A stretch of 64,000 nucleotides of DNA from an uncultured bacterium (GTDB lineage Bacteria; Planctomycetota; SZUA-567; JAKLDR01): assembly GCA_937935355.1 (NCBI GenBank), contig CALGYR010000100.1, forward strand, positions 3,566-67,565, written 5' to 3'. Each line of letters begins with the position of its first letter. The first letter of the stretch is position 1. A program made the translations under genes and the position numbers. Shown piece after piece: positions 6,558 through 56,570 of the stretch. Below the pieces are notes generated by a model. It saw only the letters and a program-made list of their open reading frames with translations. It searched no databases and was not told the origin of the DNA.

Positions 6558-6574
6558 GCACAAGATGGATCCCC

Positions 6575-6706
6575 ACCACAGAGCACACGGAGGGCACAGA
6601 GGACGGCCACAGTTGCTCATCTGCGGAGACACGGCCATGCCGCCCAAGGCTCTTGCCACAGTGAAAAGTCACGGTCGTCCTCCGTGTCCTCTGTGTCCTC
6701 TGTGGT
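6575..6706. repeat. family D hairpin (CACAGAGG-type arms)
   Basis: 'ccacagagcacacggagggcacagaggacgg-N68-cgtcctccgtgtcctctgtgtcctctgtgg'. Confidence 0.75.
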
Positions 6707-6766
6707 GAAGATCGCAGTTGTAGCCTTGGACGTTTCTCGAAACGGCCCTGGGAGGATTCCGGAGTC

Positions 6767-8747: not shown

Positions 8748-8814
8748 CTGCGTGGACCTCCGCCAATACGGCAGTGTAAGCTATACCGAGACGAGCGCAA
8801 GTCCCGTGGGTGGT

Positions 8815-8900
8815 CAACCACAAAGTCACCAAGGCACAAAGGGGCACAAAGCAGAAAAAGGCGTTCCTCTTGGTGTCTCTTCGTGTCTTGGTGTCTTTGG
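8815..8900. repeat. family D hairpin (CACAAAGG variant)
   Basis: 'ccacaaagtcaccaaggcacaaaggggcacaaag-N18-ctcttggtgtctcttcgtgtcttggtgtctttgggg'. Confidence 0.7.
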
Positions 8901-8928
8901 GGTAAGGAGAGAATTGGGAGGAGAGAAG

Positions 8929-10230: not shown

Positions 10231-10275
10231 GGGGTGGAAGGCTGGAAGGCTGGAAGGCTGGAAGGTTGGAAGGGC
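10231..10275. repeat. family A oligomer repeat (GGCTGGAAGG x4 direct)
   Basis: 'gggtggaaggctggaaggctggaaggctggaaggttggaagg' lies between the ADP-ribosylglycohydrolase stop and the URO-D start. Confidence 0.7.
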
Positions 10276-10296
10276 GGGGGAGATGAGGGCGGAAGC

Positions 10297-11334
10297 GTGA
10301 ACGCCAAGGAAAACGCCCTGCGGATCATCCGCTTCGACCGCCCGGAGCGGATCGTGGGCGGGCCGCCATGTCACGGGCTCGCCTACCTGGGCTGCAACCA
10401 CGAGGGCTACGAGGGCGGCGGCCACCACCTGCCGGTGGGCTCGAAGTGGACGGACATCTGGGGGACCGTCTGGCACCGCGAGCACGAGGGCGTGATGGGG
10501 TTCCCTCGCGGCAATCCGCTGGCCGACCTGGTCGGCGGACTGGCCCGTTTCCATTGGCCGTCTCCCGACGACGAGCGCATCTGCGGCCCGCTCCGGGAGC
10601 AGGCCCGGGCCTGGAACCGCGAGGAGTCTTTCCTGACCGGCCGGCATCGGGACACGCTCTGGGAGAAGGGCTACATGCTCGTGGGCATGGAGGAGCTGAT
10701 GTGCTCCTTCCACACCGAGCCGGGAGCGGTGCGCGAGCTCTTCCGCGGCATCATGGACTTCCAGCTGGGCATGGCCCGGCACTACCTGGAGCTGGGCGTC
10801 GAGATGGTCTCGATGGGCGACGACCTCGGCACCCAGTCGGGGCTGCTGCTCTCGCCGGAGATCCTCGAGGAGTTCCTGGTGCCGGAGTACCGCCGGCTCT
10901 TCGACCTGTACCGGAGCCGCGGCGTCATGATCGGCTTCCACAGCTGCGGGCACGTCACGCCGGTCCTGGAGATGTTCATGGACCTGGGCGTGGACGTCCT
11001 GAACCCGATACAGGCCACGGCCAACGACCTGGCCGAGGTCCGGCGCATCACCCGGGGGCGGATGGCCCTGCAGGGCGGGGTCTCCTCGGGGCTGGTCATG
11101 GAGGGCCCGACGGAGCGGATCCGGGCGGAGGCCCGCCGCTGCATGCGGCTGCTCGGCAGCGACGGGGGATACTTCTGCGGTCCCGACCAGGGCATGCCCT
11201 ACCCGCAGGAGCACCTCGACGCGCTCAAGGACGAGATCGGGCGCTTCGGCCGGTATCCGCTGTGCGAGGCAGGAGATCGCGCCGCGTCGGTCCCGGGCCA
11301 TTGCGGGAAGGAGGTTTCACCGCCGAGGCGCTGA
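10297..11334 (+). CDS. URO-D family protein (second paralog)
   Basis: Motifs 'DIWGTVWHRE', 'GDDLGTQSGLLLSPE' and 'GFHSCGHVTPVLEMFMDLGVDVLNPIQ'. A GTG start at 10297 is preferred. The upstream in-frame ATG at 10234 would translate the GGCTGGAAGG repeat. Confidence 0.7.
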   Translation: MNAKENALRIIRFDRPERIVGGPPCHGLAYLGCNHEGYEGGGHHLPVGSKWTDIWGTVWHREHEGVMGFPRGNPLADLVGGLARFHWPSPDDERICGPLREQARAWNREESFLTGRHRDTLWEKGYMLVGMEELMCSFHTEPGAVRELFRGIMDFQLGMARHYLELGVEMVSMGDDLGTQSGLLLSPEILEEFLVPEYRRLFDLYRSRGVMIGFHSCGHVTPVLEMFMDLGVDVLNPIQATANDLAEVRRITRGRMALQGGVSSGLVMEGPTERIRAEARRCMRLLGSDGGYFCGPDQGMPYPQEHLDALKDEIGRFGRYPLCEAGDRAASVPGHCGKEVSPPRR

Positions 11335-11435
11335 GGCGCAGAGCGCGCTCATGAGCGCGGCGGACGTTCCTTGGCGGCCTGGGTCCTGGCCGCGGACGGA
11401 ATCTTCTTTCTGCGTCTCCGCGCCTCGGCGGTGAA
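11317..11435. repeat. family C element whose left arm overlaps the stop codon of the URO-D paralog
   Basis: 'tcaccgccgaggcgctgaggcgcagagcg...ggtcctggccgcggacgg...ctgcgtctccgcgcctcggcggtgaa'. Confidence 0.6.
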
Positions 11436-11513
11436 ATCGGCCTCCTGCCGTGGTCCTGGTTCCCGGTCGCAGGCAGTTGACCGGGCCGCGGCTCGGTGGT
11501 TATACTCCGAGCC

Positions 11514-12646: not shown

Positions 12647-12650
12647 GGTG

Positions 12651-13696: not shown

Positions 13697-13699
13697 GGG

Positions 13700-14410
13700 C
13701 TATTCCCTTTTCGAGATGTCGGCGCCGCCCAGGAAGGGGGCGAGCTCCCGGGCGTCGACCTGGATGTCGCGGAGGCTGCCGGTCAGGTGGACGATGGCCT
13801 CGGCGCTGCCGGCCTCGCCCTGGAAGCGCTTGTCGAGGCTCTGCACGTGGAAATCGCTGAGCATCACCCGGACGGGGAGGTCGAGCTTCCCGCCCGCGCC
13901 CGGCTCGAAGACGCACGATAGCGTGAAGCGGCCGCGCAGGAAGCGGACCCGGCCGTGCTCCTTGAGCGCGGGGTTGAGCTCGAAGCAGTGCCCGCTGACG
14001 GCCAGCTTCGCCGGGCCGGAGCCGGTCTCCCCGGTAAGGGCGCCGAGGTTGCCGGCCGAGACGTCCACGCCGGTCAGGCGCAGCGGCTCGGTCCCGGGCA
14101 GCTCCAGGCGGACCACGCCCTGGTTCATGGTCAGGGTCCGGAGCCGCCGCTCGGAGAGGTCCCCGGTGGCCACCAGGCGGTCGAATTCCAGGACCGGCCC
14201 AGGGGCCGCGCCCAGGGTCAGGTCGGAGATGGCGATGCCTCCGGACGCCGGCCGGACCGATCCGATCCGGCAGGGCATGCCCGTCTCCCGGGAGATGGCC
14301 GCGGCCAGCCGCCGGCTCGGCGAGAGCGGCCCGAGGAGGAGCCACGCGACCAGCGCGCCGGTCCCGGCGAGCGCGGCGGCGATGGCGGCGAGGCGTCTGC
14401 GGCGGCTCAT
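13700..14410 (-). CDS. hypothetical membrane-anchored protein
   Basis: N-terminal TM 'LAAIAAALAGTGALVAWLLL'. The gene is tightly packed between the lipoprotein and PilZ genes. Confidence 0.5.
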   Translation of the reverse strand: MSRRRRLAAIAAALAGTGALVAWLLLGPLSPSRRLAAAISRETGMPCRIGSVRPASGGIAISDLTLGAAPGPVLEFDRLVATGDLSERRLRTLTMNQGVVRLELPGTEPLRLTGVDVSAGNLGALTGETGSGPAKLAVSGHCFELNPALKEHGRVRFLRGRFTLSCVFEPGAGGKLDLPVRVMLSDFHVQSLDKRFQGEAGSAEAIVHLTGSLRDIQVDARELAPFLGGADISKRE

Positions 14411-15132
14411 TTCTGGGAGACGAACTGCGCGCCGGCCTCGTAGCGGGTGCCCACCCGCCGGGAGCGGATCACCCGGATTATGGAGTTGAGGGTCAGCCGC
14501 GTGCCGGCGCCGCCCGCCGGCGACGGGTTGCTGAAGATGCTGATGGCCGCCACCGAGCCGGACGGCAGCGGCCGGGTGGAGAAGAAGCGCAGGCCGCCGG
14601 CGGAGATGTCGCGGACCTCGCCGCGCCAGGGCCGGGCCGTCTCGCCCGGCAGCCGGAAGAAGGCCTCCAGGCGCACCGGGTGGCGCTTCGTCCGGCGGCG
14701 CTCGGAGGCCTCGAACCGCCGGGCCGGCACGGGGGCGAAGCGCGCCCCTATCTCCCAGACCTGCGCGACCTGGCGGCAGCGGACCACCTCGAGGTAGAGC
14801 TCTCCGCCGAAGTCCCGGACCTTGCCGCCCCGGCGCTGCAGCGTGGCCTGGAGGATCTCGCCGATGCCGAGCTCCTGCGAGGCCGCGAAGCGCAGGCCGC
14901 TGCGGGAGAGGTCCCGCACCCGTCCGACCAGCGGGGTCATCCGGCCGGGCGCGCGGTAGCGCACCAGCAGGTCGGCGTTGAGCCTCTCGAAGTTGCGGCG
15001 CTCGCGGCCGCCGCCGGAATCCAGGCGGGCCTCGAGCCGGGCCAGGAGCCGGTCGACATCCTGGAGCTTCTGGCGCTCCAGGGCCGCCTGCTCGCGCAGG
15101 CGGTGGGGGCGGGACGAACCGCTCTCGGGCAT
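14407..15132 (-). CDS. PilZ domain-containing protein (tandem PilZ)
   Basis: Two 'RRxxR...D(L/I)SxGG' c-di-GMP-binding signatures: 'ERRNFERL...DLSRSGLRF' and 'RRRTKRHP...DISAGGLRF'. Confidence 0.75.
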   Translation of the reverse strand: MPESGSSRPHRLREQAALERQKLQDVDRLLARLEARLDSGGGRERRNFERLNADLLVRYRAPGRMTPLVGRVRDLSRSGLRFAASQELGIGEILQATLQRRGGKVRDFGGELYLEVVRCRQVAQVWEIGARFAPVPARRFEASERRRTKRHPVRLEAFFRLPGETARPWRGEVRDISAGGLRFFSTRPLPSGSVAAISIFSNPSPAGGAGTRLTLNSIIRVIRSRRVGTRYEAGAQFVSQK

Positions 15133-15136
15133 CCGC

Positions 15137-16369
<1,233 letters not shown>

Positions 16370-16498
16370 CGATCGTCTCCTCCTGGTTATGGCACTGGCG
16401 CGGCGGCTCTTCCGGAGCCGTCGGAGCGATTCTAGCCCCGCTGGGGAGGTTCGCAAGGAACGTGTGGGCACCAACTGCCGGTAATGAGAGGAGCCGGG

Positions 16499-16619
16499 CT
16501 CACCGCCGAGACGCGGAGGCGCCGAGACTGGATTTTGTCCGCGGCTCAGGTTCTTGCCCGCAGAAGCCGTCCGCCGCGTTCCTGAGCCTGCTCTGCGCCT
16601 CTGTGTCTCCGCGGTGAAC
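16499..16619. repeat. family C hairpin element
   Basis: 'tcaccgccgagacgcggaggcgccgagac...tgtccgcggctcagg...ctctgcgcctctgtgtctccgcggtgaa'. The loop core is shared with the 4241 copy. Confidence 0.75.
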
Positions 16620-16698
16620 CCGGGCCACAAAGAACCGCGCGGCCGGATCTCTCCGGCCGCGCGGGCTCTGCCTGGGTTCGTTCTGGACTGCCGCGGCT

Positions 16699-17077: not shown

Positions 17078-19303
17078 CTAGTGGCGCGGGCCGCCACGAC
17101 CGCCGTGGCCACCATGCCCGCCCCGGCCGCCGCCGCGACCGCCGTGGCCGCCGGGACCGCGCGGCCGGAAGCCGCCGCCGCCCTCGCCGCCGGCCGGCTG
17201 CTGGTTCTCCATGCCCTCGGGCACGGGGAGCAGAGCCTTGCGGGAGAGCTTGAGGCGCCCGGTGTCGTCGATGTTGATCAGCTTCACCTCGACGGTGTCG
17301 CCGATCTTGACGTGCTGGCCGATGTCCTTGACGTAGGCGTAGTCCCACTCGGAGACGTGCAGCAGGCCGTCGGTGCCGGGCAGGATCTCGATGAAGGCGC
17401 CGAACTCCTTGATGGTCCGGACGGTGCCCTTGTAGACCGTGCCGACGATCGGCTCCATGGTCAGGGCCTCGACCATGGCCTTGGCGGCCTCGGCCGCGGC
17501 CGCGTCCGTCGAGGAGATGGAGACGATGCCCTCGTCGTTGATGTCGATCTCGGCGCCGGACTGGGCCTCGATCCCGCGGATGGTCTTGCCGCCGGGGCCG
17601 ATGACCTTGCCGATCTTCTCCTGGTCGACCTTGATGGTGATGATCCGCGGGGCGAGCGGGTTGAGCTGCTCGCGCGGCTTGGCCAGGGCCTCGAGCATGA
17701 TCCCGAGGATCTTCATGCGCCCCTGGCGGGCCTGCTCGAGCGCGCGGCTCAGCAGGTCGGTCTTCAGCCCCTTCACCTTGATGTCCATCTGCAGGGCGGT
17801 GATGCCCTGGCCCGTGCCGGCGACCTTGAAGTCCATGTCGCCGAAGTGGTCCTCGTCGCCGAGGATGTCGGTGAGCACGATGCTCTTGTCGCCCTCCTGG
17901 ACCAGGCCCATGGCGATGCCCGCCACCGGGGCCTTGATCTGGACGCCGGCGTCCATCAGCGAGAGCGATCCGCCGCAGATGGTCGCCTGGCTGGACGAGC
18001 CGTTGGACTCGAGCACCTCCGCGGCGATGCGGATGGTGTAGGGGAAGTTCTCGCCGGAGGGCAGCACCGGCTCGAGCGCCCGCTTGGCCAGCGCGCCGTG
18101 GCCGATGTCGCGGCGGCTCGGGCCGCGCGGCATCTTGACCTCGCCGACCGAGAAGGACGGGAAGTTGTAGTGCAGCAGGAAGTCCTCCTCGAAGTCCTCG
18201 TGGAGGGCCTCGACCATCTGCTTGTCGCCGGGGGTTCCCAGCGTGGTGGTGGCCAGCACCTGGGTCTCGCCGCGGGTGAAGAGCGCCGAGCCGTGGGTGC
18301 GCGGCAGCAGCCCCACCTCGCAGGTGATCGGCCGGACGTCCTCGAAGCCGCGGCCGTCGCAGCGTACGCCGTTCTCGAAGATGCTCTTGCGCATGGCCAC
18401 GGACTGCAGTTCGTCGAAGGCCGCGTAGACCTTGCCCTTGGTCGGGCTCTTGGGGTCGTCGGGCTTGACGAACTCGGCCATGATCTTGTCGCGCACGGCC
18501 TTGAGCGCCGCGCGGCGCTCGGCCTTGGTCTTCACCAGGCAGGCCTGGCCGGTCTCGGCGAGGTATTTCGCCTCGACGGCCTTGAAGAGCGAGTTGTCGA
18601 CGGGCGCGGGCACCATCTTCTGGACGCCGCACTGGGCCGCGAGCTCGGACTGCATCAGGGCGATCTCGCGGCAGACGCCGCCGGCCATCTCGAGTGCCCG
18701 GACCATCACGTCCTCGGGCACCTCTTTGGCTCCGGCCTCGACCATGACGATGCTGTCGGCGGTGCCGGCCACGATGAGGTCCAGGTCGCCCTCGGTGCGC
18801 TGGGCGTAGCTGGGGTTGACGACGAACTCGCCGTTCACCCGGCCGATGCGCACGGCGCCGAACGGACCCTGGAAGGGCAGGGGGCTGACCGCCATGCTGG
18901 CGGAGCCCGCGATCATGGCGAAGATGTCCGGGTCGGTCTCGTCGTCGGCCGAGAGGGTCATGACCTGGACCAGCGTGTCGCGCCGGAAGCCGTCCGGGAA
19001 GAGCGGGCGGGTCGGGCGGTCGATGAGCCGCATGGTCAGGATTTCCTTCTCGGTCGGACGGCCCTCGCGCTTGTAGAAGCGTCCGCCGAAGATCTTGCCG
19101 GCCGAGAAGGCCTTCTCGCGGTAGTCGACCGTCAGCGGGAAGAAGTCGTCGAAGCCCTCGCGCGGGTCGGCGTCGGTGACGGCGGCGAGCACCACGGTGT
19201 TGCCCCAGGTCACCAGCGCGGCGCCGGAGGCCTGCTTGGCGAGGCGCCCGGTCTCGATGACCAGTTTGCGCCCGCCGATTTCACGTTCTACGATGAAAGC
19301 CAA
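17078..19303 (-). CDS. pnp: polyribonucleotide nucleotidyltransferase (PNPase)
   Basis: Two RNase PH domains plus KH and S1 domains. The N-terminus is 'MAFIVEREIGGRKLVIETGRLAKQASGA'. There is an unusual Gly/Arg/His-rich C-terminal tail. Confidence 0.92.
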   Translation of the reverse strand: MAFIVEREIGGRKLVIETGRLAKQASGAALVTWGNTVVLAAVTDADPREGFDDFFPLTVDYREKAFSAGKIFGGRFYKREGRPTEKEILTMRLIDRPTRPLFPDGFRRDTLVQVMTLSADDETDPDIFAMIAGSASMAVSPLPFQGPFGAVRIGRVNGEFVVNPSYAQRTEGDLDLIVAGTADSIVMVEAGAKEVPEDVMVRALEMAGGVCREIALMQSELAAQCGVQKMVPAPVDNSLFKAVEAKYLAETGQACLVKTKAERRAALKAVRDKIMAEFVKPDDPKSPTKGKVYAAFDELQSVAMRKSIFENGVRCDGRGFEDVRPITCEVGLLPRTHGSALFTRGETQVLATTTLGTPGDKQMVEALHEDFEEDFLLHYNFPSFSVGEVKMPRGPSRRDIGHGALAKRALEPVLPSGENFPYTIRIAAEVLESNGSSSQATICGGSLSLMDAGVQIKAPVAGIAMGLVQEGDKSIVLTDILGDEDHFGDMDFKVAGTGQGITALQMDIKVKGLKTDLLSRALEQARQGRMKILGIMLEALAKPREQLNPLAPRIITIKVDQEKIGKVIGPGGKTIRGIEAQSGAEIDINDEGIVSISSTDAAAAEAAKAMVEALTMEPIVGTVYKGTVRTIKEFGAFIEILPGTDGLLHVSEWDYAYVKDIGQHVKIGDTVEVKLINIDDTGRLKLSRKALLPVPEGMENQQPAGGEGGGGFRPRGPGGHGGRGGGRGGHGGHGGRGGPRH

Positions 19304-26299: not shown

Positions 26300-26420
26300 C
26301 TGCGAACGGCGAACCGCAGAATGTCGAATGTCGAAGTCAGAATTACGAACGACGTGGAGTGGCCGGGAGTTGCCACTTCGACATTCGTCATTCGGTGTTC
26401 TGCGGTTCTGCGGTTTGCTG
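26300..26420. repeat. family B hairpin (AATGTCGAA-type arms)
   Basis: 'gaaccgcagaatgtcgaatgtcgaag-N42-cttcgacattcgtcattcggtgttctgcggttc'. Confidence 0.7.
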
Positions 26421-28631: not shown

Positions 28632-29054
28632 ATGTTCAGCCTGCAGTTGAGGTCTCTGGGAGTGATGGCGTTGGGCTTGGCCTTCTCGTTTGCGGCCGTC
28701 GCCGCCGAGGGAGACAAGCCTCAGGCGGGCGACCAGGACGGGGCGAAGAAGGAGGTCAAGGTCCAGACCACCTGTCCGGTCATGGGCAACAAGATCAACA
28801 AGGACATCTACGTCGATCACGACGGCAAACGGGTCTACCTGTGCTGCAAGGCCTGCGTGGCCGCCTTCAACAAGGACCCCGGGAAGTACATCAAGAAGCT
28901 CGAGGACGAGGGCGTGACCATCGAGAAGGCCCCGGTGCAGACGGAGTGCAAGGACAAGTGCGATGCCAAGGACGGCAAGGCCGGAGGCGGCTGTTGCTCG
29001 GACGCCGGCAAGACCGTCAAGGAAGGAGCGGGGGAAGGCGGGTGCTGCAAGTAG
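28632..29054 (+). CDS. secreted YHS/TRASH-domain metal-binding protein with Cys-rich C-terminus
   Basis: Signal peptide, YHS-like 'CPVMGNKI.....YVDHDGKRVYLCCKACVAAFNKDPGKY', and a C-terminal 'GGGCCS...GGCCK' motif. Confidence 0.7.
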   Translation: MFSLQLRSLGVMALGLAFSFAAVAAEGDKPQAGDQDGAKKEVKVQTTCPVMGNKINKDIYVDHDGKRVYLCCKACVAAFNKDPGKYIKKLEDEGVTIEKAPVQTECKDKCDAKDGKAGGGCCSDAGKTVKEGAGEGGCCK

Positions 29055-29156
29055 CGCCCGCGCGGTTCTACGGGCGGTTCTCCCCGCAGAGAACCGCCCG
29101 TAGAACTTCCGCCGCAGAAGGCGTCATGAACCCCGGTCCGGGTACGGAGGCTGAAT

Positions 29157-29441
29157 ATGCTTGACGACGACCTCTCACGCGAGCTCGACCGCCGGCTCCT
29201 CAAGATCGAGGGCCAGGTCCGCGGCATTCGCAAGATGATCGAAGATCATCGCTACTGCGTGGACCTGCTCGACCAGCTGGCCGCGGCGCGCGCGGGCTTG
29301 GGCGCGGTCGGCCAGGGGATACTCAGGAACCACATCGAGACCTGCGTGGCCGCGGCCCTGTCCGGGACTAACCAGGCCGACCGGCAGGCGAAGGTCGAGG
29401 AACTGGTCAGGCTCTTCCCGCGGTTCTGCCGCGGAGGCTGA
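29157..29441 (+). CDS. csoR: CsoR/RcnR family metal-sensing transcriptional repressor
   Basis: 94 aa, 'LKIEGQVRGIRKMIEDHRYCVDLLDQL...H..C'. This is the CsoR fold with a Cys-His-Cys ligand set. Confidence 0.8.
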   Translation: MLDDDLSRELDRRLLKIEGQVRGIRKMIEDHRYCVDLLDQLAAARAGLGAVGQGILRNHIETCVAAALSGTNQADRQAKVEELVRLFPRFCRGG

Positions 29442-29483
29442 GGAGGATTCCAATGCGCCGAGGGCACTGCGACCGGAGGGGAA

Positions 29484-29640
29484 CTGCGGCACCGAACGTT
29501 CAACATGCAACACGCAACATTCGACACGCAATGAATCAGCGGAAGGGGCCGATTCATCGGTTTCATTCCTCAAGATCGTGCTCCTTCCCTGATTTGCTCT
29601 GTATGTTGCATGTTGCATGTTGGACGTTGCGTGTTCGTCT
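29484..29640. repeat. family B-like hairpin (CAACATGCAAC arms) with an inner stem-loop
   Basis: 'gaacgttcaacatgcaacacgcaacattcgacacgcaatgaatc...gattcat...tgttgcatgttgcatgttggacgttgcgtgttcg'. Confidence 0.7.
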
Positions 29641-29671
29641 CTTCCCCGAAATATCCTGCAGGGCCATCGCT

Positions 29672-31096
29672 GTGCGCACTTCGAGGACTGGTCTCGCTCT
29701 GCTCGCGCTTCCCCTGGCCCTGGCGGCTGGCTGCGCGCCTGACGGTTCGCCGGGCGCTTCGCCAGGCGTTGGGATCGGCGGTTCGGCGGGGACCCCGCCC
29801 TTCAGCAGGGCCGGGATCGTTCGCGACCGGGGGATGGGGGGCGAGGTTCGCGCCGAGCCGCCCCTCGCGACGCTCGACGACTATCTGGCGTATGCGGCGA
29901 TCCACAACCCCGGCCTGGAGGCGGCCTACTACCGCTGGCAGGCGGCGACCGAGCGCGCCCCGCAGGCCCGGAGCCTTCCCAATCCGGTGCTCAATTACGG
30001 GTACTACATCCGCTCGGTCGAAACCAAGGTCGGCCCGCAGCGCGAGCGAGTGGGCCTGTCCCAGGCCATTCCATGGCCGGGCAAGCTCATCGCCGCCTCG
30101 GCGGTGGCGGACAGAGAGGCCGAGGCCGCGCGGCTCGGCTACGAGGCGGCCAAGTTCGAGCTCTTCTATCGGGTCAAGGACGCCTGGTACGAGTACTACT
30201 ACCTCGGGCGTCAGACCCAGGTGACGGAGGCCGTCGCCGACCTGGTCCGGAAGATGGAGGAGGTCGTCAGGGCCAGGTACGCGGCCGGCGCTGCCGGGCA
30301 TCCGGACCTGATCCGCGCGCAGGTTGAGCTCGGACGGGTCGAGGACCGCGTCAGGAGCCTGCGCGACCTGCGCTCCGCGGCGGCCGCCAGGCTCAACGCC
30401 GTGCTCGGCCGTCCGACGGACGCGCCGGTGCCCTGGCCCGGGGAGGCGCCGGCCGTCTCCAGCCTCGCGGCATCGGACGAGTCGCTGGTCGCCGAAGTCC
30501 TGGAGCGCAACCCGGAACTCGCCGCGCTCGGCGCCCAGGTCGAGCGGGACCGCAGGGCGGTGAGCCTCGCCAGGCAGAACTACTGGCCGGACATCACCGT
30601 CGGCGGCGAGTACATCTTCACCGACAAGGCCAGGAGCACCATGCCGATCGAGGACAACGGCAAGGACCCGGTGGTGGTGAGCGTGGGTCTGAGCCTGCCC
30701 ATCTGGTTCGGGCGCTACCGGGCGGCCGAGCGCGAGGCCCGCGACCGGCTGCGCGGCACGGAGCTCTCGCGCGAGGACCGGGGCAACGCGATCGCCGCCC
30801 GGCTCAAGCGCGTCCTCTTCGAACTGCACGACGCCGAGCGCAAGGCCGAACTCTACGGCCGGACGCTCATACCCCGGGCCGAGGATTCCCTGGCGGCGAA
30901 TGAGGCGGCCTTCAAGGCCGGCCGCACGGACTTCTCGGCCCTGCTCGACGCCGAGCGGGTGCTGCTCGACTTCCGGCTGAGCTACGAGCGGGCGGTGGCC
31001 GGCCACGCCCAGCGCCTCGGCGAGCTCGAGATGCTGCTGGGCCGGCCGGTGGCCACGGATGCGGTGTCCGACGCTCCCAAGGAGGTGGGCCGATGA
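29672..31096 (+). CDS. cusC: TolC-family outer membrane efflux protein (CusC-like)
   Basis: Lipoprotein-like 'LALLALPLALAAGC' followed by two OEP repeats. A GTG start at 29672 is chosen because the upstream part of the ORF is occupied by a hairpin repeat. Confidence 0.75.
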   Translation: MRTSRTGLALLALPLALAAGCAPDGSPGASPGVGIGGSAGTPPFSRAGIVRDRGMGGEVRAEPPLATLDDYLAYAAIHNPGLEAAYYRWQAATERAPQARSLPNPVLNYGYYIRSVETKVGPQRERVGLSQAIPWPGKLIAASAVADREAEAARLGYEAAKFELFYRVKDAWYEYYYLGRQTQVTEAVADLVRKMEEVVRARYAAGAAGHPDLIRAQVELGRVEDRVRSLRDLRSAAAARLNAVLGRPTDAPVPWPGEAPAVSSLAASDESLVAEVLERNPELAALGAQVERDRRAVSLARQNYWPDITVGGEYIFTDKARSTMPIEDNGKDPVVVSVGLSLPIWFGRYRAAEREARDRLRGTELSREDRGNAIAARLKRVLFELHDAERKAELYGRTLIPRAEDSLAANEAAFKAGRTDFSALLDAERVLLDFRLSYERAVAGHAQRLGELEMLLGRPVATDAVSDAPKEVGR

Positions 31097-32949
31097 TCGA
31101 CTTCAGAAGAATTCTGGTGAGCGGCCGGTTCCGCCTGGCATTCGCCATCGCCGGGGTGCTGCTTCTCGGCGGCCTGGCGACGATCGTTCTGCACGAGTCC
31201 GGCGGCAGCCATGCGGCCGAATCGTCCGTGGCCGGCAAGGCCGGGGCGCAGTACTACACCTGCGGCATGCACCCCTGGGTGATTCTGCCGAAGCCCGGCG
31301 ACTGCCCGATCTGCCACATGAAGCTCGTGCCCCTCGATCCCGCGAAGTTCACCGGCCAGATCGCCATCGACCCGGTGGTCGTCCAGAACATCGGCGTCCG
31401 AGTCGCGCCGGCGACGGTCGGAGAGGTGACCCGCACCGTCCGGACGGTCGGTTCGGTCGAATACGACGAGACCCGCGTCCGGGACGTGAACCTCAAGATC
31501 GCCGGCTGGATCGAGAAGCTGCACGTCGACTCCCTCGGTCAGCCGGTGAAGAAGGGCGAGCCGCTCCTCGAGATCTACTCGCCCGAGCTCTACTCGGCCG
31601 AGGCCGAGTATCTCGCGGCCTTTCGGCGCGCCAAGGCCGGGCAGAACGCGGACAGGGCCGACAGGATGGACGCCGAGTTGCTCGCGGCCGCCCGGAAGCG
31701 CCTGGAGTACTTCGACGTCCCGGCCGGCGAGGTCCGCGAGCTCGAGCGGACCGGCGAGGTCAGGAAGGCCCTGACCATCCGCAGCCCCTTCGACGGCGTG
31801 GTCGTCGAGAAGATGGCCCAGGAGGGCATGAAGGCCGATGCCGCCATGCGCCTCTACCGCATCGCCGACCTCTCGACCGTCTGGGTGCAGGCCGCGGTCT
31901 ACGAGCAGCAACTGCCCTACGTCCGGGAGGGCCAGGCGGCGGCCATGACGCTGCCCTACCTGCCCGGCCGGAAGTTCGACGGCAAGGTGGCCTACGTCTA
32001 CCCCTACCTGGACAGGAAGCTCCGCCAGGTGAACGTGCGCCTGGAGTTCGCGAACCCCGATCTCACGCTCAAGCCCGGGATGTTCGCGAGCGTCGAGTTG
32101 CGCGGCGCCGAGGCGAAGCAGGGCCTGCTCGTCCCGCGCGAGGCGGTGATCGACACCGGCGAGCGGCAGGTGGCCTTCGTGAGCCTGGGCAAGGGGAGGT
32201 TCGAGCCCCGCGACGTGAAGCTCGGCGTCGAGGCCGACGGCGGCAAGGTCGAGATCCTCGAGGGCCTGAAGCCCGGCGAGATGGTGGTCACCAGCGGCCA
32301 GTTCCTGCTCGACAGCGAGTCGCGCCTGCGCGAGGCGCTGGCCAGGATGATGGCGGGGACGACGGGAGGGGTGGAAGGTGGAGGGTGGAAGGTGGAAGGT
32401 TCCGCCTCGCAAGCCTCCACCATCCACCATCCACCTTCCACCCTGCTTGTCCTTCCGGCGCCCGCCGGCAAGGCGCTCGCCGGGATGCTCGACGGCTACT
32501 TTGCGATCGGTGCGAAGCTGGCCGACGACACCGCTGCGGGCATCGCCGAGCCCGCGCGACAAGTGGCCTCGAGCGCCGAGGCTCTGCTCAAGGTGGAGAT
32601 CCCCGGCGACCCGCACTTCTGGCACAAGCACATGGAGGCCGGCGAGGTCCGCGCCAGGGCGCTGGAGCTGGCCGGCGCCGGCGATCTGGCCAAGGCCCGC
32701 TCGGTCTTCGCCGACCTGGGCACGGCGCTCGAAAAGCTGCTCAAGGCGACGGGCGTCCCCGCTGGCTACGGGAAGGAGGTCTACGAACTCCATTGCCCGA
32801 TGTATCGGGAGGAGCAGGGCGGCGCCGTCTGGCTGCAGACCAACCAGGATGTCACCAACCCATACTACGGCAAGGCCATGCTGAACTGCGGGGACGTGGT
32901 GGGGGCTGTCCCCTCCCACGCCGCTCCGGACGGGAACGGGAAGAAGTAG
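31093..32949 (+). CDS. cusB: efflux RND periplasmic adaptor (CusB-like) with N-terminal heavy-metal-binding motif and C-terminal DUF3347-like domain
   Basis: 'YYTCGMHPWVILPKPGDCPICHMKL' (HMBD), then an MFP barrel/lipoyl region and a C-terminal 'YYGKAMLNCG'. A GGTGGAAGG hairpin repeat sits in frame in the linker at 32368-32444. Confidence 0.75.
   Translation: MIDFRRILVSGRFRLAFAIAGVLLLGGLATIVLHESGGSHAAESSVAGKAGAQYYTCGMHPWVILPKPGDCPICHMKLVPLDPAKFTGQIAIDPVVVQNIGVRVAPATVGEVTRTVRTVGSVEYDETRVRDVNLKIAGWIEKLHVDSLGQPVKKGEPLLEIYSPELYSAEAEYLAAFRRAKAGQNADRADRMDAELLAAARKRLEYFDVPAGEVRELERTGEVRKALTIRSPFDGVVVEKMAQEGMKADAAMRLYRIADLSTVWVQAAVYEQQLPYVREGQAAAMTLPYLPGRKFDGKVAYVYPYLDRKLRQVNVRLEFANPDLTLKPGMFASVELRGAEAKQGLLVPREAVIDTGERQVAFVSLGKGRFEPRDVKLGVEADGGKVEILEGLKPGEMVVTSGQFLLDSESRLREALARMMAGTTGGVEGGGWKVEGSASQASTIHHPPSTLLVLPAPAGKALAGMLDGYFAIGAKLADDTAAGIAEPARQVASSAEALLKVEIPGDPHFWHKHMEAGEVRARALELAGAGDLAKARSVFADLGTALEKLLKATGVPAGYGKEVYELHCPMYREEQGGAVWLQTNQDVTNPYYGKAMLNCGDVVGAVPSHAAPDGNGKK
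32368..32444. repeat. family A hairpin (GGTGGAAGG arms) inside the cusB linker
   Basis: 'ggtggaaggtggagggtggaaggtggaagg-N17-ccaccatccaccatccaccttccacc'. Confidence 0.75.
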
Positions 32950-32953
32950 TCCC

Positions 32954-35900
32954 ATGATCGGCAAGCTCATCGACTGGTGCGTCCGCAACCGCCTTCTGGT
33001 GCTGCTCCTGACGGCGCTGTTGGCCGTCGGAGGCATCTGGTCGGCCAGCCACATCACCATCGATGCCATCCCGGACCTCTCCGACGTGCAGGTGGTGATC
33101 CGTACGGAGGCGGCGGGCCAGGCCCCGCAGATCGTCGAGGACCAGATCACCTATCCGCTGACCACGGCGATGCTGGCCGTGCCCAAGGCCAAGGTGGTGC
33201 GCGGCTACAGCATGTTCGGCACCAGCTTCGTCTACATCATCTTCGAGGACGGCACCGACCTGTACTGGGCGCGGAGCCGCGTCCTCGAGCAGCTCAGCAC
33301 CGTTTCGGCGAAGCTCCCGGCCGGCGTGAGCCCGCAACTCGGGCCGGACGCCACCGGGGTGGGATGGATCTACGAGTACGCGCTCGTCACCGGCAGGTAC
33401 TGTCCGGACCATCCGAACGGCGCCTGGCACGACCCCGTGACGGACAAGTGGTACGCCGATCCCGGGAAAGCCCCCGGCGACGAGGCTGTGCAGAAACGGC
33501 TCGTCCATCACCGGGTCTTCCAGGAGAGCCGCGATGCCTGCCCTCTCGACGGCAAGCCTCTCAAACCGAGCGACCAGAGCCTGGCCAACCTCCGCAGCCT
33601 CCAGGACTGGTATCTGCGCTACGAGCTGACCGCGGTCGACGGGGTCAGCGAGGTGGCCTCGCTCGGCGGCTTCGTCAAGCAATACCAGGTGGTGGTCGAC
33701 CCGGTGAAGCTGCTGGCCTTCCACATGCCGCTCGGCAAGGTCAAGTCCGCGATCCAGCGCTCGAACCTCGACGTTGGCGGCCGGCTCGTGGAGATGAGCG
33801 AGACCGAATACATGGTTCGGGGCGTGGGCTACCTCGGCAGCCTCTCTGACCGGGAGGTCGTCGTCGCCCGCGCCGCAGGCAAGTCCGTCGGGGAGCTGCG
33901 CACCGCCAGGGCGCTCGATGAGCTGGGCAGGGTCGCGCTCGGCGCCACGGAGAGCGGATCTCCCATCCGGCTCTCGGACGTGGCCGAGGTGCGCCTCGGC
34001 CCGGACATCCGCCGCGGCGTGGCCGACTGGAACGGCGGGGGCGAGACCGTCGGCGGGATCGTGGTGATGCGCTTCGGCGAGAACGCCCGCGCGACCATCG
34101 ACAACGTCCGCCGGAAGCTCGCCGACCTCGAGAAGGGCCTGCCCGCCGGCGTGGCGGTCGAGACCGGCTATGACCGCAGCGACCTGATCGACCGCGCGGT
34201 GGATACGCTGCGGCACACGCTCTTCGAGGAAATCGCCATCGTCGCGCTGGTGTGCATTCTGTTCCTGCTCCATGCCCGGAGCGCGCTGGTGGCCGCCTTC
34301 GTGCTGCCGACGGGAGTGCTGGCCACGCTTGCGGTCATGCACCTGCTGGGCATCAATGCCAACATCATGAGCCTGGGCGGCATCGCCATCGCCATCGGCG
34401 TGATGGTGGACAGCTCCATCATCATGGTGGAGAACGCCCACAAGCACCTCGACTACGAGAGACAACGCGTGGCCGAAGGGGGCGGGCCCCGCCCGCGGTC
34501 CGCGGTCATAGCCGAGGCGGCCCGGGAGGTGGGCCCGAGCCTCTTCATCGCGCTGCTCATCATCGTGGTCAGCTTCCTGCCCATCTTCGTGCTGGGCGAG
34601 CAGTCCGGGAGGCTCTTCAAGCCCCTGGCCTACACCAAGACCTTCGCGATGATCGGCGGCGCGGTGCTGGCCGTGACCATCATCCCGGTGCTCATGACCT
34701 TCTTCGTGTCGGAGCGGACGCTGCCCGTGGAAATGAGCCGGCGCAGGCGCTGGGCCACCTACGCGGGCATCGTCTTCGTCCCCGCCCTGGTGTTGGCGGC
34801 GATCCCCTTGCCGCAGCTGGACGGATACCGGCTCCCGCTGGCTCTGGGCTGGGCCGTCCTCTCCGCCCTGGCGATCCTGCCGCAGCGGCTCCCCTCGGAG
34901 GAGCGGAACCCGATCAGCCGCTTCCTGGAGGCGGTCTACAACCCGCTATTCGCGCTGGTGATGCGCTTCCGCTGGGCGGCGATGATCGGGGCGGTCGTGC
35001 TGGTGGCCGTGACATGGGTCCCCTTCAGCCGTCTGGGCAGCGAGTTCATGCCGCCGCTCGAAGAGGGCGACCTGCTCTATATGCCCACGACCGACCCGGG
35101 CATCAGCATGGGCAAGGCCCGCGAGCTGCTCCAGCAGACCGACGCGCTCATCAAGAGCTTCCCGGAGGTCGAGAAGGTCCTGGGCAAGGCCGGCCGGGCC
35201 GAGACCGCCACCGACCCGGCGCCGCCGAGCATGCTCGAGACCACCATCACCCTCCGGCGCGACAAGGACCTCTGGCGACAGGTGCCGGCCGGGCGCTTCT
35301 TCGCCTCCTGGCCGGGGTTCCTGCGCGGGCCGCTCTCGCACATCTGGCCGCTCAACCGGCCGATCACGACCGACGAACTGGTCTACGGCTACGAGCTGCC
35401 GGTGGCCGGCCGCGAGCCGCTCCACGTCCCCGGGCTCAACGAGGCGGTCCAGATCCCGGGGCTGACCAACTCCTGGACCATGCCGATCAAGACGCGCATC
35501 GACATGCTCTCCACCGGCATCAAGACCCCGGTGGGCGTCAAGGTCATGGGGCCGGACCTGGGGACGCTGGGCCGGATGGCCGACCGGATCGCCCAGGTGC
35601 TGAAGACCTCCGAGGGCACCGGCGCCTACACGGTGAGCGCCTTCCCGGAGAAGACCGTCGGCGGCAATTACCTCGACGTGCGCATCGACCGCGACGAGAT
35701 CGGCCGCTACGGCCTGACCGTGGGCGACGTCCAGGACGTGGTCATGAGCGCCCTGGGCGGCGCCAACGTCACCTACACGGTGGAGGGGCTGGAGCGCTAT
35801 CCGGTGAACCTGCGTTATCCCTCCGAGTTGCGCGACCGACGGGACGCGCTCGCCGGCATGCTGGTGGCCACGCCCTCCGGCGCGCAGGTGCCGCTGGGGC

Positions 35901-36688
35901 AGCTCGCCGAGCTCCAAATCCACAAGGGCGCGCCCATGGTCAAGAGCGAGAACGCGCGGCTGACCAGTTGGGTCTACGTGGACATCGCCGGGATCGACGT
36001 GGGCACTTACGTGGCCAACGCCCAGCGGGCCGTCGCCGAGAAGGTCGATCGGCCCGAGGGCTACTCCATCGTCTGGTCCGGACAGTACGAGTACATGCAG
36101 GCAGCCAGGCAGGACCTGATCGTCGCCGGAATACTTGCGCTGGCGGCCATAATCCTGCTGCTCTACGTTTCGACCCGGAGCTGGCTGCGGACCTTGCTAG
36201 TGATTCTGGCCGTGCCCTTCAGCCTGGTGGGGGCGGTCTGGCTGCTCTACCTGATGGACTACAACCTGTCGCTCGCGGTGGTGGTGGGCCTGATCGCGCT
36301 GGCCGGGCTCGACGCCGAGACCGGGGTGGTCATGCTGCTCTACCTCGACACCAGCTTCGCGCGCTTCAAGTCCGAGGGGCGGATGCGTGACGCCAAAGAC
36401 CTGTGGCGCGCCGTCCACGACGGGGCGGTCAAGCGCATCCGGCCCAAGATGATGACGGTGGTCTCGACGGGCGCCGGCCTCCTGCCGCTGCTGTGGGCCT
36501 CGGGCGCCGGCGCCGACACCATGCGGCGGCTGGCCGTGCCCATGATCGGCGGGCTGGCCACGAGCTTCCTGATGGAGCTCCTCATCTACCCGGCGATCTA
36601 CTACACCGCCAAGAGGATGGCCCTTGCCGGTCAGTTACGGGACAAAGGTGCGCGCACCGGCGAGGCACTGCCCTCCTCGGCGCAGTAA
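32954..36688 (+). CDS. cusA: heavy-metal efflux RND permease (CusA/CzcA family)
   Basis: 1244 aa, 12 TM HME-RND topology, starting 'MIGKLIDWCVRNRLLVLLLTALLAVGG'. Confidence 0.9.
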   Translation: MIGKLIDWCVRNRLLVLLLTALLAVGGIWSASHITIDAIPDLSDVQVVIRTEAAGQAPQIVEDQITYPLTTAMLAVPKAKVVRGYSMFGTSFVYIIFEDGTDLYWARSRVLEQLSTVSAKLPAGVSPQLGPDATGVGWIYEYALVTGRYCPDHPNGAWHDPVTDKWYADPGKAPGDEAVQKRLVHHRVFQESRDACPLDGKPLKPSDQSLANLRSLQDWYLRYELTAVDGVSEVASLGGFVKQYQVVVDPVKLLAFHMPLGKVKSAIQRSNLDVGGRLVEMSETEYMVRGVGYLGSLSDREVVVARAAGKSVGELRTARALDELGRVALGATESGSPIRLSDVAEVRLGPDIRRGVADWNGGGETVGGIVVMRFGENARATIDNVRRKLADLEKGLPAGVAVETGYDRSDLIDRAVDTLRHTLFEEIAIVALVCILFLLHARSALVAAFVLPTGVLATLAVMHLLGINANIMSLGGIAIAIGVMVDSSIIMVENAHKHLDYERQRVAEGGGPRPRSAVIAEAAREVGPSLFIALLIIVVSFLPIFVLGEQSGRLFKPLAYTKTFAMIGGAVLAVTIIPVLMTFFVSERTLPVEMSRRRRWATYAGIVFVPALVLAAIPLPQLDGYRLPLALGWAVLSALAILPQRLPSEERNPISRFLEAVYNPLFALVMRFRWAAMIGAVVLVAVTWVPFSRLGSEFMPPLEEGDLLYMPTTDPGISMGKARELLQQTDALIKSFPEVEKVLGKAGRAETATDPAPPSMLETTITLRRDKDLWRQVPAGRFFASWPGFLRGPLSHIWPLNRPITTDELVYGYELPVAGREPLHVPGLNEAVQIPGLTNSWTMPIKTRIDMLSTGIKTPVGVKVMGPDLGTLGRMADRIAQVLKTSEGTGAYTVSAFPEKTVGGNYLDVRIDRDEIGRYGLTVGDVQDVVMSALGGANVTYTVEGLERYPVNLRYPSELRDRRDALAGMLVATPSGAQVPLGQLAELQIHKGAPMVKSENARLTSWVYVDIAGIDVGTYVANAQRAVAEKVDRPEGYSIVWSGQYEYMQAARQDLIVAGILALAAIILLLYVSTRSWLRTLLVILAVPFSLVGAVWLLYLMDYNLSLAVVVGLIALAGLDAETGVVMLLYLDTSFARFKSEGRMRDAKDLWRAVHDGAVKRIRPKMMTVVSTGAGLLPLLWASGAGADTMRRLAVPMIGGLATSFLMELLIYPAIYYTAKRMALAGQLRDKGARTGEALPSSAQ

Positions 36689-36711
36689 CCGGAGTGAATA
36701 GGGGCGCGAAA

Positions 36712-37326
36712 GTGAGCGACTGCTGCGCTTCGTGTGTCGGGGAACTGGAGAAACTCCAGGGCCGCCAGCGCTCGACGCTGCGCGTCGTGCTGGCCATCAA
36801 CGCGGTCATGTTCGCCGTGGAGGCGGCGGCCGGCATCCTGGCGGGCTCGACCGCCCTCTTGGCCGACTCGCTGGACATGCTGGGCGACGCGCTGGTCTAC
36901 GGCTTCAGCCTGTACGTGGTGGGCCGCAGCCAGTCCTGGAAGGCGGCCGCGGCCCTGGCCAAGGGCGCGGCAATGGCGCTCTTCGGCCTCTTCGTCCTGG
37001 GGGAGGCGCTCTGGAAGCTGTTCCACCCCGAGGTGCCCGCCCACCTCGCGATCGGCGGCGTCGGGCTTCTGGCGCTGGCCACCAACCTGGTCTGCCTGGG
37101 CCTCCTGTGGCGTCATCGCGCGGAGGACATCAACATGCGCTCGGTGTGGCTGTGCTCGCGCAACGACATCGTCGCCAACGTGTCCGTGCTGGTCGCGGCG
37201 CTCGGGGTGTGGGCCTTCCGGTCGCAGTGGCCGGACCTGCTGATCGGCGTGGGCATCGCGGCGCTCTTCATCGCCTCGTCGGTCCGCGTGCTGCGCGAGG
37301 CGTGGAGGTGTCGCGCTCCGCGCTGA
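36712..37326 (+). CDS. cation diffusion facilitator-like membrane transporter (TM domain only)
   Basis: The GTG at 36712 is the first start after the cusA stop (36688). Six TM helices carry CDF-like 'LLADSLDMLGDAL' and 'HRAEDINMRSVWLCSRNDIVANV'. Confidence 0.6.
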   Translation: MSDCCASCVGELEKLQGRQRSTLRVVLAINAVMFAVEAAAGILAGSTALLADSLDMLGDALVYGFSLYVVGRSQSWKAAAALAKGAAMALFGLFVLGEALWKLFHPEVPAHLAIGGVGLLALATNLVCLGLLWRHRAEDINMRSVWLCSRNDIVANVSVLVAALGVWAFRSQWPDLLIGVGIAALFIASSVRVLREAWRCRAPR

Positions 37327-37430
37327 TCCGGGTCTGGTCGCAGCGGCCGGTTGCCTTCGGGGCGTCGATCCCGGGCTGTGCCGATGCGCCCGCCATGCCT
37401 CCTCCATGTCTTTGTCGGCTGCCGCCGGAA

Positions 37431-37445
37431 TACCCCGGCCGGGTG
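37431..37445. promoter_or_regulatory. second predicted CsoR operator
   Basis: 'TACCCCGGCCGGGTG' lies about 55 bp upstream of the HMBD-protein ATG. The flanks are shared with the 28526 box ('GGAATACCCC.GCCGGGT'). Confidence 0.45.
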
Positions 37446-37498
37446 GTGGGTTTTGCCCACGAAGGGGACGGCTCGGGCGGCAAGGAGGAGGTGCTGCC

Positions 37499-37786
37499 AT
37501 GAAAGCGAAAAACCGACCGATCGGGTGGCTGTGGCTTTTCGCGGCCGGATGCGTGGTGCTGGCCGTGGGATTGGCTGCCGGCCATATGCTGCTGGCCGAC
37601 AACCAGCTGGAGCGGCCCAAACACGCCGCGCCGTTGTGGAACGCTCCGGAGAGCACGCAGTCCTGGCGCTGCCCGGCCCACGTGGAGGATAGGCTCTCCG
37701 GCCCGGGCAAGTGCCCCAAGTGCGGCATGGACCTGACCTTCCCGAAGCCCGACGAAGCGGAAGCCCGGGACTGCGCCGCGCGGTGA
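37499..37786 (+). CDS. membrane-anchored heavy-metal-binding domain (HMBD) protein
   Basis: RBS 'aaggaggaggtg', TM 'WLWLFAAGCVVLAVGLAAG', and 'WRCPAHVEDRLSGPGKCPKCGMDL' (CPxH...CPxCGM motif, as in the CusB N-terminus). Confidence 0.65.
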   Translation: MKAKNRPIGWLWLFAAGCVVLAVGLAAGHMLLADNQLERPKHAAPLWNAPESTQSWRCPAHVEDRLSGPGKCPKCGMDLTFPKPDEAEARDCAAR

Positions 37787-37967
37787 CCTGGGGTGACATG
37801 GCATCCCGCGGAAAAGGTTTCCGGTGCGACGCCAATCCTGAGGCATGGCAAGCATCGGATTGAAGCCTCATTCTTGACGCGCCGCCGGCAGTCGATACCA
37901 TGCGACCGTCCGGCCGAGGCCCTTCGCGGGCCATTTCCCAGGCGCCGTCAAGGAGGGGAACAACGCG

Positions 37968-50739: not shown

Positions 50740-50860
50740 CGGTCGTTGTTGTTGTTCACACAGAGCCGCGGAGCCACGGAGAACGGCAAACCAGGCCGTT
50801 GTTGTCCTCTGTGTCTCTGCGTCTCCGTGTGAGAAACAGCCGTTGCTGTTGCCATCATCC
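50740..50860. repeat. family D hairpin
   Basis: 'cacacagagccgcggagccacggagaacgg-N25-gtcctctgtgtctctgcgtctccgtgtgagaa'. Confidence 0.65.
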
Positions 50861-56393: not shown

Positions 56394-56570
56394 TGGTGGA
56401 AGGTGGAAGGTTGAAGGTGGAGGTGAACCGGGTTCGTTAGGCTGAAGCCGGAGGGCGGACGCGCGGAGCCGCCCTCGGCTTCCATCTTTCACCATCCATC
56501 TTCCACCGTAAACCTCCACCCTCCACCTTCCACCCTCCACCTGCCACCTCCCACCCGCCAATCTTCCTTC
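56394..56570. repeat. family A composite hairpin (GGTGGAAGG arms flanking an inner perfect hairpin)
   Basis: Left arm 'ggtggaaggtggaaggttgaaggtggaggtg'. Inner stem 'gaagccgagggcgg...ccgccctcggcttc'. Right arm 'caccatccatcttccacc...ctccaccctccaccttccaccctccacctgccacctcccacc'. Confidence 0.75.

Follow-up and report, generated by a model that had tools for sequence, protein, structure and literature searches.

The 64-kb window that we analyzed (the whole stretch of DNA, 64,000 nucleotides [nt] from an uncultured bacterium of the Planctomycetota) contains a cusB-like gene, which encodes a putative membrane-fusion (adaptor) protein of an RND efflux system. Within this gene, at about 32368-32444, lies an inverted hairpin whose arms are arrays of tandem heptamers: (GGTGGAR)x4.4 faces (TCCACCW)x3.9 across a loop of about 15 nt. 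The hairpin was first noticed by inspection of the DNA sequence, and was described as a repeat inserted in frame that encodes a linker of the protein. We will refer to that description as the original prediction. Coordinates of the gene, of the parts of the hairpin, and of similar hairpins in the window are collected in Table 1.

A hairpin inside a cusB-like gene

The open reading frame (ORF) of the gene passes through the hairpin without a stop codon, and its translation includes MMAGTTGGVEGGGWKVEGSASQASTIHHPPSTLLVLPAPAGK. In Pfam, the HMBD domain corresponds to residues 54-80 and HlyD_D23 (PF16576) corresponds to residues 112-332 (E = 2.3e-81). The membrane-fusion core is also covered by precomputed matches to PF25919, PF25973, PF25954, and PF25975. 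Residues 466-555 match DUF3347 (PF11827) with 17.6 bits (E = 0.007), which is under the cut-off of 25.5 bits. Because 24 of the 30 aligned homologs match DUF3347 in the homologous region (with a best E value of 3.7e-7), we consider "DUF3347-like" to be a fair label for the C-terminal domain. (A sequence search of the PDB found no solved structure for this domain.) The continuous ORF, the Pfam matches, and the homologs all agree with the original prediction that the hairpin lies in frame between the membrane-fusion part and the DUF3347-like domain. If the hairpin is translated, then the predicted tryptic peptide VEGSASQASTIHHPPSTLLVLPAPAGK would be diagnostic of the read-through.

Upstream of the cusB-like gene, and overlapping it by 4 nt, is a gene for an outer-membrane efflux protein (OEP, PF02321). 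The gene that begins 5 nt downstream encodes a protein of 1244 amino acids with ACR_tran (PF00873). Judging from these domains, this is a cusCBA-like operon with the order OEP, membrane-fusion protein, and RND pump.

The hairpin itself is much as it was described, in its sequence, its tandem arms, and its folding. Tandem Repeats Finder reports GGTGGAA x4.4 at 32370-32400 and TCCACCA x3.9 at 32416-32442, with 91-95% matches, and the arms are 88-95% complementary across 19-24 nt. Two units of the 3' arm have A.A mismatches at the identical position. As RNA, the segment 32355-32455 is predicted to fold with -68.1 kcal/mol, versus -40.9 +/- 3.5 for 200 dinucleotide shuffles (z = -7.76); none of the 200 shuffles was as good. 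The minimum free energy of a slightly longer segment (32350-32462, 113 nt) is -77.8 kcal/mol. Among all 110-nt windows of the gene, the one with the hairpin is the most stable (-77.9, versus a mean of -47.1 with a standard deviation of 7.1).

The interdomain linker and its homologs

From a search of 5.8 billion proteins, we obtained a set of 120 homologs that are 53-65% identical to the window protein. We aligned the window protein with 29 homologs. In all 29, the linker between the two domains follows the 20-residue consensus AAxQKxxAAVAGxSELxxLP, and the window protein has GGVEGGGWKVEGSASQASTIHHPPSTLLVLP instead. The anchors FLLDSE and HFW are 98 residues apart in the window protein, versus 87 in 102 of 116 homologs (and 87 +/- 1 in 110 of the 116). 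Hence the net gain is 11 residues (33 nt), and there is no recognizable remnant of the old linker. Because the hairpin spans 77-107 nt and the gain is just 33 nt, the old 20-residue linker must have been replaced, not just interrupted. The original prediction was of an insert of about 26 residues. The hairpin does encode 26 residues, but the protein is longer by only 11, as the linker was exchanged rather than split. The gain maps to the right-arm side of the hairpin, and the motif VEG occupies a linker position that it also has in some homologs.

The original prediction also proposed an alignment of orthologs, to see whether they share the residues in question. None of the 120 homologs contains WKVEG, GGVEG, or HHPPS, and hence the segment that the hairpin encodes is lineage-specific. 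Beyond the linker, all 24 columns of the downstream domain that are invariant among the homologs are kept in the window protein, so the gene is intact.

Some homologs (P0002, P0003, P0018, P0027, and others) have 780-900 amino acids, and many exceed the window protein by 150-250 residues. The aligned homologs of 590-690 amino acids often have C-terminal tails that are rich in Pro, Ala, and Met (…GAMPPMPGM). So, the termini of this family vary greatly, while the length of the internal linker is tightly conserved.

The linker segment of the window protein is predicted to be disordered. AlphaFold2, run on the alignment, gives a predicted local distance difference test (pLDDT) score below 50 for residues 414-449 and coil for residues 422-455, with confident domains on both sides. 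Codon usage in the linker is atypical as well: the GC content at third codon positions (GC3) of its 31 codons is 0.65, as against 0.937 for the remainder of the gene (P = 1.6e-6), and it uses GGA, GGT, GAA, CCA, CCT, and CTT, which are otherwise nearly absent from the gene. Hence the linker's sequence reflects the repeat and not the codon usage of the gene. Such codon usage fits either a recent origin or a constraint at the nucleotide level. Also, apart from the exact protein, the nearest relative of the window protein among the 5.8 billion proteins is 65% identical, and the window protein is a singleton in clustering at 90%. A recent date for the insertion thus cannot be demonstrated.

The peptide follows from the arithmetic of the repeat. 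Since 7 and 3 are coprime, reading (GGTGGAA)n in any frame yields the residues of GGRWKVE in some permutation, and (TTCCACC)n, again in any frame, yields a permutation of FHLPPST. Neither permutation includes a stop, and the cusB hairpin has no stop codon in any of its six frames, which makes it the sole such case among eight hairpins of the window. Because the repeat has no stops, long stop-free frames are useless as evidence of coding in high-GC loci, and we called coding regions by codon-position GC signatures in place of the length of stop-free frames. We see no support for the idea that the protein exploits the peptide, given that the segment is predicted to be disordered and that its peptide is what any frame of the repeat would encode.

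Similar hairpins in the window and in other genomes

About eight long imperfect hairpins are found in the window (about 1 per 8 kb), each with arms made of short tandem or near-tandem repeats. Their units are 7-9 nt long and differ from locus to locus. According to codon-position GC and NCBI's gene calls, the other seven hairpins either avoid coding frames or, at the most, run over a stop codon; the cusB copy alone is wholly inside a frame. Five of the seven, along with a single-arm array at 10235, are found 0-70 nt downstream of a stop codon. The more purine-rich arm (A > T) is on the 5' side in 8/8 hairpins.

The relationship to intergenic repeats that the original prediction proposed is supported by the hairpin at 56395, which has the same repeat unit as the cusB hairpin and belongs to the same class. 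The loops and flanks of these two hairpins are unrelated, and the repeat unit alone is common to them. Allowing up to 2 mismatches, we counted 17 occurrences of the 13-mer GGTGGAAGGTGGA in the 64-kb window, versus 2.05 expected, and 0 of 100 shuffles reach 17. All but one of these 17 matches are within two clusters, which are the cusB hairpin and 56395-56555.

Table 1. The cusB-like gene, the parts of its hairpin, and related hairpins, with positions in the window.
Feature	Position	Strand	Description
cusB-like RND membrane-fusion (adaptor) gene	31093..32949	+	618 amino acids; N-terminal HMBD, C-terminal DUF3347-like domain
Interdomain linker T423-V453	32359..32451	+	TTGGVEGGGWKVEGSASQASTIHHPPSTLLV; 31 residues versus 20 in homologs
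Full imperfect stem	32353..32459	+	inverted repeat 32353-32404 / 32408-32459 with 52-nt arms, 77%; extends into conserved flanking codons
5' arm	32369..32400	+	tandem heptamers GGTGGAA/GGTGGAG, about 4.4 units; no C; encodes GVEGGGWKVEG
Apical region/loop	32401..32415	+	TCCGCCTCGCAAGCC, small inner stem
3' arm	32416..32444	+	tandem heptamers TCCACCA/TCCACCT, about 3.9 units; no G; encodes STIHHPPST
Second hairpin with the GGTGGAR unit	56395..56560	+	intergenic, 5 nt after stop codon 56387-56389; longer loop with its own inner hairpin
Hairpin of the class	6568..6713		units CACAGAGG / TCCTCTGTG; 10 nt after stop codon
Hairpin of the class	8822..8900		units CACAAAGG / CTTGGTGT; between divergent genes
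Hairpin of the class	11292..11459		GAGGCGCT-type units; left arm overlaps stop codon at 11334
Hairpin of the class	26304..26408		GAATGTC / GACATTC; between convergent genes
Hairpin of the class	29490..29635		CAACATG / CATGTTG; between csoR-like repressor gene (stop 29441) and outer-membrane gene of the same efflux operon
Hairpin of the class	50750..50835		units CACGGAGC / CTCTGCGT; intergenic

A stop codon at 10230 precedes the single-arm array, (C)TGGAAGG x4.9 at 10235-10273, by 4 nt. The unit of the array is similar to that of the cusB hairpin, except that it has 8 nt, and there is no complementary arm nearby. This array could be the "seed" of a hairpin or a remnant of one. The window also contains a GC-rich repeat at 17089-17193, with a 39-nt period, 2.6 copies, and nested periods of 9, 12, and 18 nt; it is probably part of a gene, where it would encode a low-complexity segment.

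The cusB-like gene belongs to a metal-efflux cluster at 28632-37900 (7540-16694 of locus L001), which encodes a YHS-domain protein, a CsoR-type repressor (PF02583), an outer-membrane factor, the CusB-like adaptor, an RND pump, a cation-diffusion facilitator, and a small HMBD protein. Just upstream of the gene for the CsoR-type repressor, at 29065-29106, is an 18-bp perfect palindrome (GTTCTACGGGCGGTTCTC / GAGAACCGCCCGTAGAAC), which is a candidate operator. A scan of 29-37 kb for promoter consensus sequences found none.

We scanned a collection of genomes, one per species, for GGTGGARGGTGGARGGTGG; the figures that follow are for the matches listed, which do not include the MAG from which the window comes. 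Hairpins of the form (GGTGGAR)n/(YTCCACC)n were found in metagenome-assembled genomes (MAGs) of Planctomycetota, Omnitrophota, Gemmatimonadota, Verrucomicrobiota, Chloroflexota, and Bacteroidota. There were 16 distinct loci with a complementary array within 300 nt, and the G-arm came first in all 16 (p = 3e-5). The loops and flanks of these 16 foreign copies are unrelated, and only the repeat unit is shared. Some MAGs contain several loci: there are at least 5 contigs with them in the Omnitrophota MAG nzgw332 and at least 2 in the Planctomycetota MAG MFD02579.bin.2.36.

Some of these hairpins are also in frame within genes. The independent and clearest case is L050 (821-2110, minus strand) from MFD02579.bin.2.36 (CAVUNQ010000001.1). 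This gene encodes an E2 acyltransferase and contains an in-frame (GGTGGAG)n/(CTCCACC)n hairpin of about 195 nt. The hairpin encodes residues ~84-149, which is the whole flexible linker from the lipoyl domain (residues 12-82) to the E3-binding domain (residues 152-184). In L111 (5780-7576, minus strand), which is from the Verrucomicrobiota MAG Yes70-15, a hairpin of about 240 nt is in frame within an ORF of 599 amino acids, as ...VEGGGWKVEGG...SHLPPST, and the coding GC3 signature keeps to one frame across the two flanks of the hairpin. In nzgw332 (about 50% GC), L026 (minus strand), L052 (plus strand), L073, and L019 have frames that are stop-free over the whole 8-kb loci; presumably, these are parts of giant genes. 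At least L026 and L073 have in-frame (GGTGGAA)n hairpins, and L052 and L073 also contain other hairpin families such as CTTTGTCATTGCGAGGCAGC. (L019 contains tandem arrays of a unit of about 40 nt, CCTCCCCCGTGTTCTCCGGGGAGGATGTTGGTTCTATTT.) Neither the giant ORFs from Omnitrophota nor the ORF of L111 had any matches in Pfam.

We also searched a protein database with a two-part peptide signature (repeats of GGRWKVE and then of FHLPPST), which gave 198 proteins at E <= 1. The best 120 of these 198 (P0121-P0240) all have 38-112 amino acids, and nearly all lack domains. Most likely, these 120 are artefacts of gene callers over stop-free intergenic hairpins. Because the best matches are small ORFs over hairpins, copies that are embedded in real multi-domain proteins must be exceptional.

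Among the repeats that have been described, the closest in architecture are the heptameric arrays of Xanthomonas (GGGAATC) and Nostoc (GGGGA(C/T)T), which have ~2-26 units (Rehm et al. 2015, PMC4692102). In Xanthomonas, 70-75 of them per genome are paired in convergent, inverted orientation on opposite strands, and such pairs could form stem-loops. Those arrays are 89-93% intergenic, mostly less than 50 bp from a stop codon, and 7-11% are at least partly intragenic; they have no link to insertion sequence (IS) or transposable elements, and the length of the repeat is not conserved between related species. The cusB hairpin likewise consists of convergent tandem heptamer arrays (4.4 and 3.9 units, 15 nt apart), and the hairpins in the window are likewise dispersed, mainly intergenic, and near the upstream stop codon, with the cusB copy as the intragenic exception. 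In contrast to the repeats from Xanthomonas and Nostoc, the host is a member of the Planctomycetota, the unit changes from locus to locus in the window, and the unit GGTGGAR lacks the three-G tracts that are behind the G-quadruplex interpretation in that paper. Since there are only GG runs, we group the cusB hairpin with the architecture of Rehm et al. and not with their G-quadruplex interpretation. (We considered a G-quadruplex in the GGTGGAA arm and rejected it, as pairing with the complementary arm would also be far more favorable.) Rehm et al. (2015) do not describe any copy that is fully embedded and translated as an interdomain linker.

Other known repeats are found within genes. As described in a review of transposable elements of the miniature inverted-repeat type (MITEs) (PMC10969869), Rickettsia palindromic elements (RPEs) are in frame within genes, where they are translated as additional segments of peptide at sites judged compatible with the fold of the protein, and they form families of ~150 bp with a conserved sequence and a conserved encoded peptide. 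The hairpins in cusB, L050, L111, L026, and L073 are likewise in frame within ORFs (and predicted to be translated). According to a report on Borg proteins (PMC9879509), tandem repeats in ORFs have unit lengths divisible by three and create intrinsically disordered regions. The cusB hairpin resembles these in that a repeat formed at the nucleotide level in an ORF, by a multiple of three, and yields a low-complexity or disordered segment; unlike the direct repeats of Borgs, it has a 7-nt unit, is an inverted pair, and is present once in the gene. A paper on repeats that form intrastrand triplexes (PMC4666352) was set aside, as the portion we consulted does not describe this hairpin architecture. 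A literature search with the exact 14-mer found no paper. Unlike RPEs and MITEs, hairpins of the cusB type share just a 7-nt unit, their loops are unrelated, there is no target duplication, and the linker of cusB was replaced, not interrupted.

Repetitive extragenic palindromic (REP) sequences have a genome-wide consensus and are moved by RAYT transposases, and 3' stem-loops of REPs can protect the upstream mRNA. The hairpins in the window resemble REP, REPIN, and BIME palindromes (e.g. PMC3116915) in being short, dispersed, hairpin-forming, and mostly just downstream of genes. Unlike REPs and REPINs, their arms are locus-specific tandem repeats, without a consensus, and no RAYT gene was seen, though no search was aimed at one. 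Overall, the cusB hairpin adds to a type of repeat that is known but little understood; its place within a reading frame is unusual and has counterparts in other phyla.

How the hairpin may have come to lie in the gene

We think it probable that the hairpin is a tolerated passenger: a hairpin of this class overwrote the 20-residue linker of a CusB-type adaptor and is read through as a low-complexity tether of 31 residues. The hairpin belongs to a dispersed class of inverted simple-sequence-repeat hairpins, which in this genome are normally non-coding and just after stop codons, and it would have been made by the same process as the intergenic copies. It fills the whole of the linker, predicted to be disordered, that joins the membrane-fusion part to the DUF3347-like domain, in place of the ancestral linker. 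The hairpin could survive there because GGTGGAA and its complement are stop-free in six frames, the net gain of 33 nt is a multiple of three, and the tether is unconstrained. The encoded peptide would have no function of its own. Any effect would more likely be at the level of DNA or RNA, such as slowing of the ribosome or polymerase or a change in mRNA stability within the cusCBA operon.

As to how the hairpin formed, quasi-palindrome correction, in which the template is switched between the arms, is an established mutational mechanism. We favor growth in place, in which the array slips and one arm is copied from the other by intrastrand template switching, rather than the arrival of a ready-made hairpin followed by a deletion. 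We favor it because the units are locus-specific, there is no conserved core or target duplication, the old linker was overwritten, and the gain is on the right-arm side with the register of VEG kept.

Several points weigh against the tolerated passenger. A hairpin of -68 kcal/mol inside an ORF could impair translation, and that it is harmless is an assumption. The presence of the GGTGGAR unit at two loci in the window and in many phyla could mean that it is a mobile element. An Rfam scan of the whole window at the gathering thresholds found no family, and a consensus scan of 29000-37000 found 0 terminator-like sites; no U-tract follows the stem, whose tail is CTGCTTGTCCTTCC. The change of linker is undatable, since the best homolog is only 65% identical, and we saw neither an empty site nor an intermediate form. 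Finally, the two assemblies that contain this DNA might derive from the same reads, and one of them has a coverage of only 7.4x.

If the unit is indeed mobile, then a ready-made (GGTGGAR)n hairpin, similar to a MITE, REP, or RPE, would have transposed into the linker of cusB, and about 44 nt of the old linker would then have been deleted, which restored a near-normal length. We consider this plausible, though less likely than growth in place. It would account for the second locus at 56395, for the several loci in nzgw332 and in MFD02579.bin.2.36, and for the in-frame copies in unrelated genes. Insertion in frame has a precedent in the RPEs (PMC10969869), and the compensating deletion could have been driven by selection on linker length, as seen in the homologs. 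But the copies share the repeat unit alone, with wholly different loops and flanks. Also, no target-site duplication is visible at the cusB copy: there is no direct repeat flanking 32353-32459, and the flanks are weakly complementary instead. Most of the hairpins in the window have other units, which a single transposed family does not explain, and no link to IS or transposable elements was seen by Rehm et al. (PMC4692102). The recurrence across phyla is partly a matter of ascertainment, as the scan targeted the GGTGGAR unit only.

A more speculative proposal, which we consider rather unlikely, is that these hairpins are self-growing DNA structures and were not transposed. An array that has expanded by slippage would be copied to the opposite arm by intrastrand template switching and would spread over unconstrained sequence, including disordered linkers. 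This would be a general way of rewriting linkers in Planctomycetota, Verrucomicrobiota, Omnitrophota, and other phyla, independent of their sequence, and the polarity with the purine arm first would reflect a function or mechanism at the level of the strand or the RNA that has not been described.

The hairpin might instead be a regulatory structure in RNA or DNA that is under selection. It could cause the ribosome or RNA polymerase to pause between the two parts of CusB (as an aid to folding), set the ratio of CusB to CusA, or act as a site for processing or stability. No structure in the gene is stronger than this very stable hairpin, a further member of the class lies upstream in the same operon (between the csoR-like and outer-membrane genes), and the fixed polarity of the arms across the class hints at a role at the strand or RNA level. 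However, nothing comparable is seen at the linker in three ortholog genes (L003, L004, and L005; z = +0.7, -2.5, and -1.2, versus -6.9 in the window gene), so the hairpin is not a conserved feature of these operons. Given as well that it has no terminator-like tail or Rfam family and that translating ribosomes would hold it unfolded, we consider a selected regulatory structure to be improbable.

It is very unlikely that the hairpin is an artefact of assembly or sequencing (a fold-back chimera), or that the gene is a frameshifted pseudogene whose continuous ORF is accidental. The source is a metagenome-assembled genome with low coverage in one assembly, library artefacts can create palindromes, and a stop-free repeat guarantees an open frame across the hairpin. 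But identical DNA, including the hairpin, is present in two assemblies (contig DAIPLX010000026.1 of GCA_036768975.1 and NODE_4720 of ERZ724101 from ENA); the arms are imperfect and have mismatches with the period of the unit, unlike a fold-back copy; the reading frame upstream of the hairpin continues unchanged downstream of it, with the invariant residues of the downstream domain kept; and there are seven similar structures in the window and many in unrelated genomes.

That the segment is a conserved, functional linker of the family, unrelated to the intergenic repeats, is scarcely credible after the alignment: VEG does occur at linker residues 12-14 in a few homologs (P0023, P0024, P0030, and P0085), but this match in register has a chance of about 1 in 7, because any frame of the repeat yields VEG once per 7 residues, and the diagnostic peptides are unique to the window protein, the consensus of the homologs differs, and the intergenic hairpin at 56395 has the identical DNA unit.

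If the hairpin is a tolerated passenger, then it is of small import for CusB itself: the protein most likely works with a slightly longer and odd tether. The recurrence of such hairpins, in frame, in flexible linkers of unrelated proteins across phyla suggests that non-coding repeat structures can rewrite disordered segments without killing the gene. Because they are stop-free, these hairpins most likely also generate many spurious small "hypothetical proteins" in the databases, as illustrated by the best 120 of the 198 signature matches. The class is common in this genome and has a strict polarity of its arms and a preference for sites just after stop codons. The wider interest of this finding lies somewhat more in the class of hairpins than in the cusB gene.

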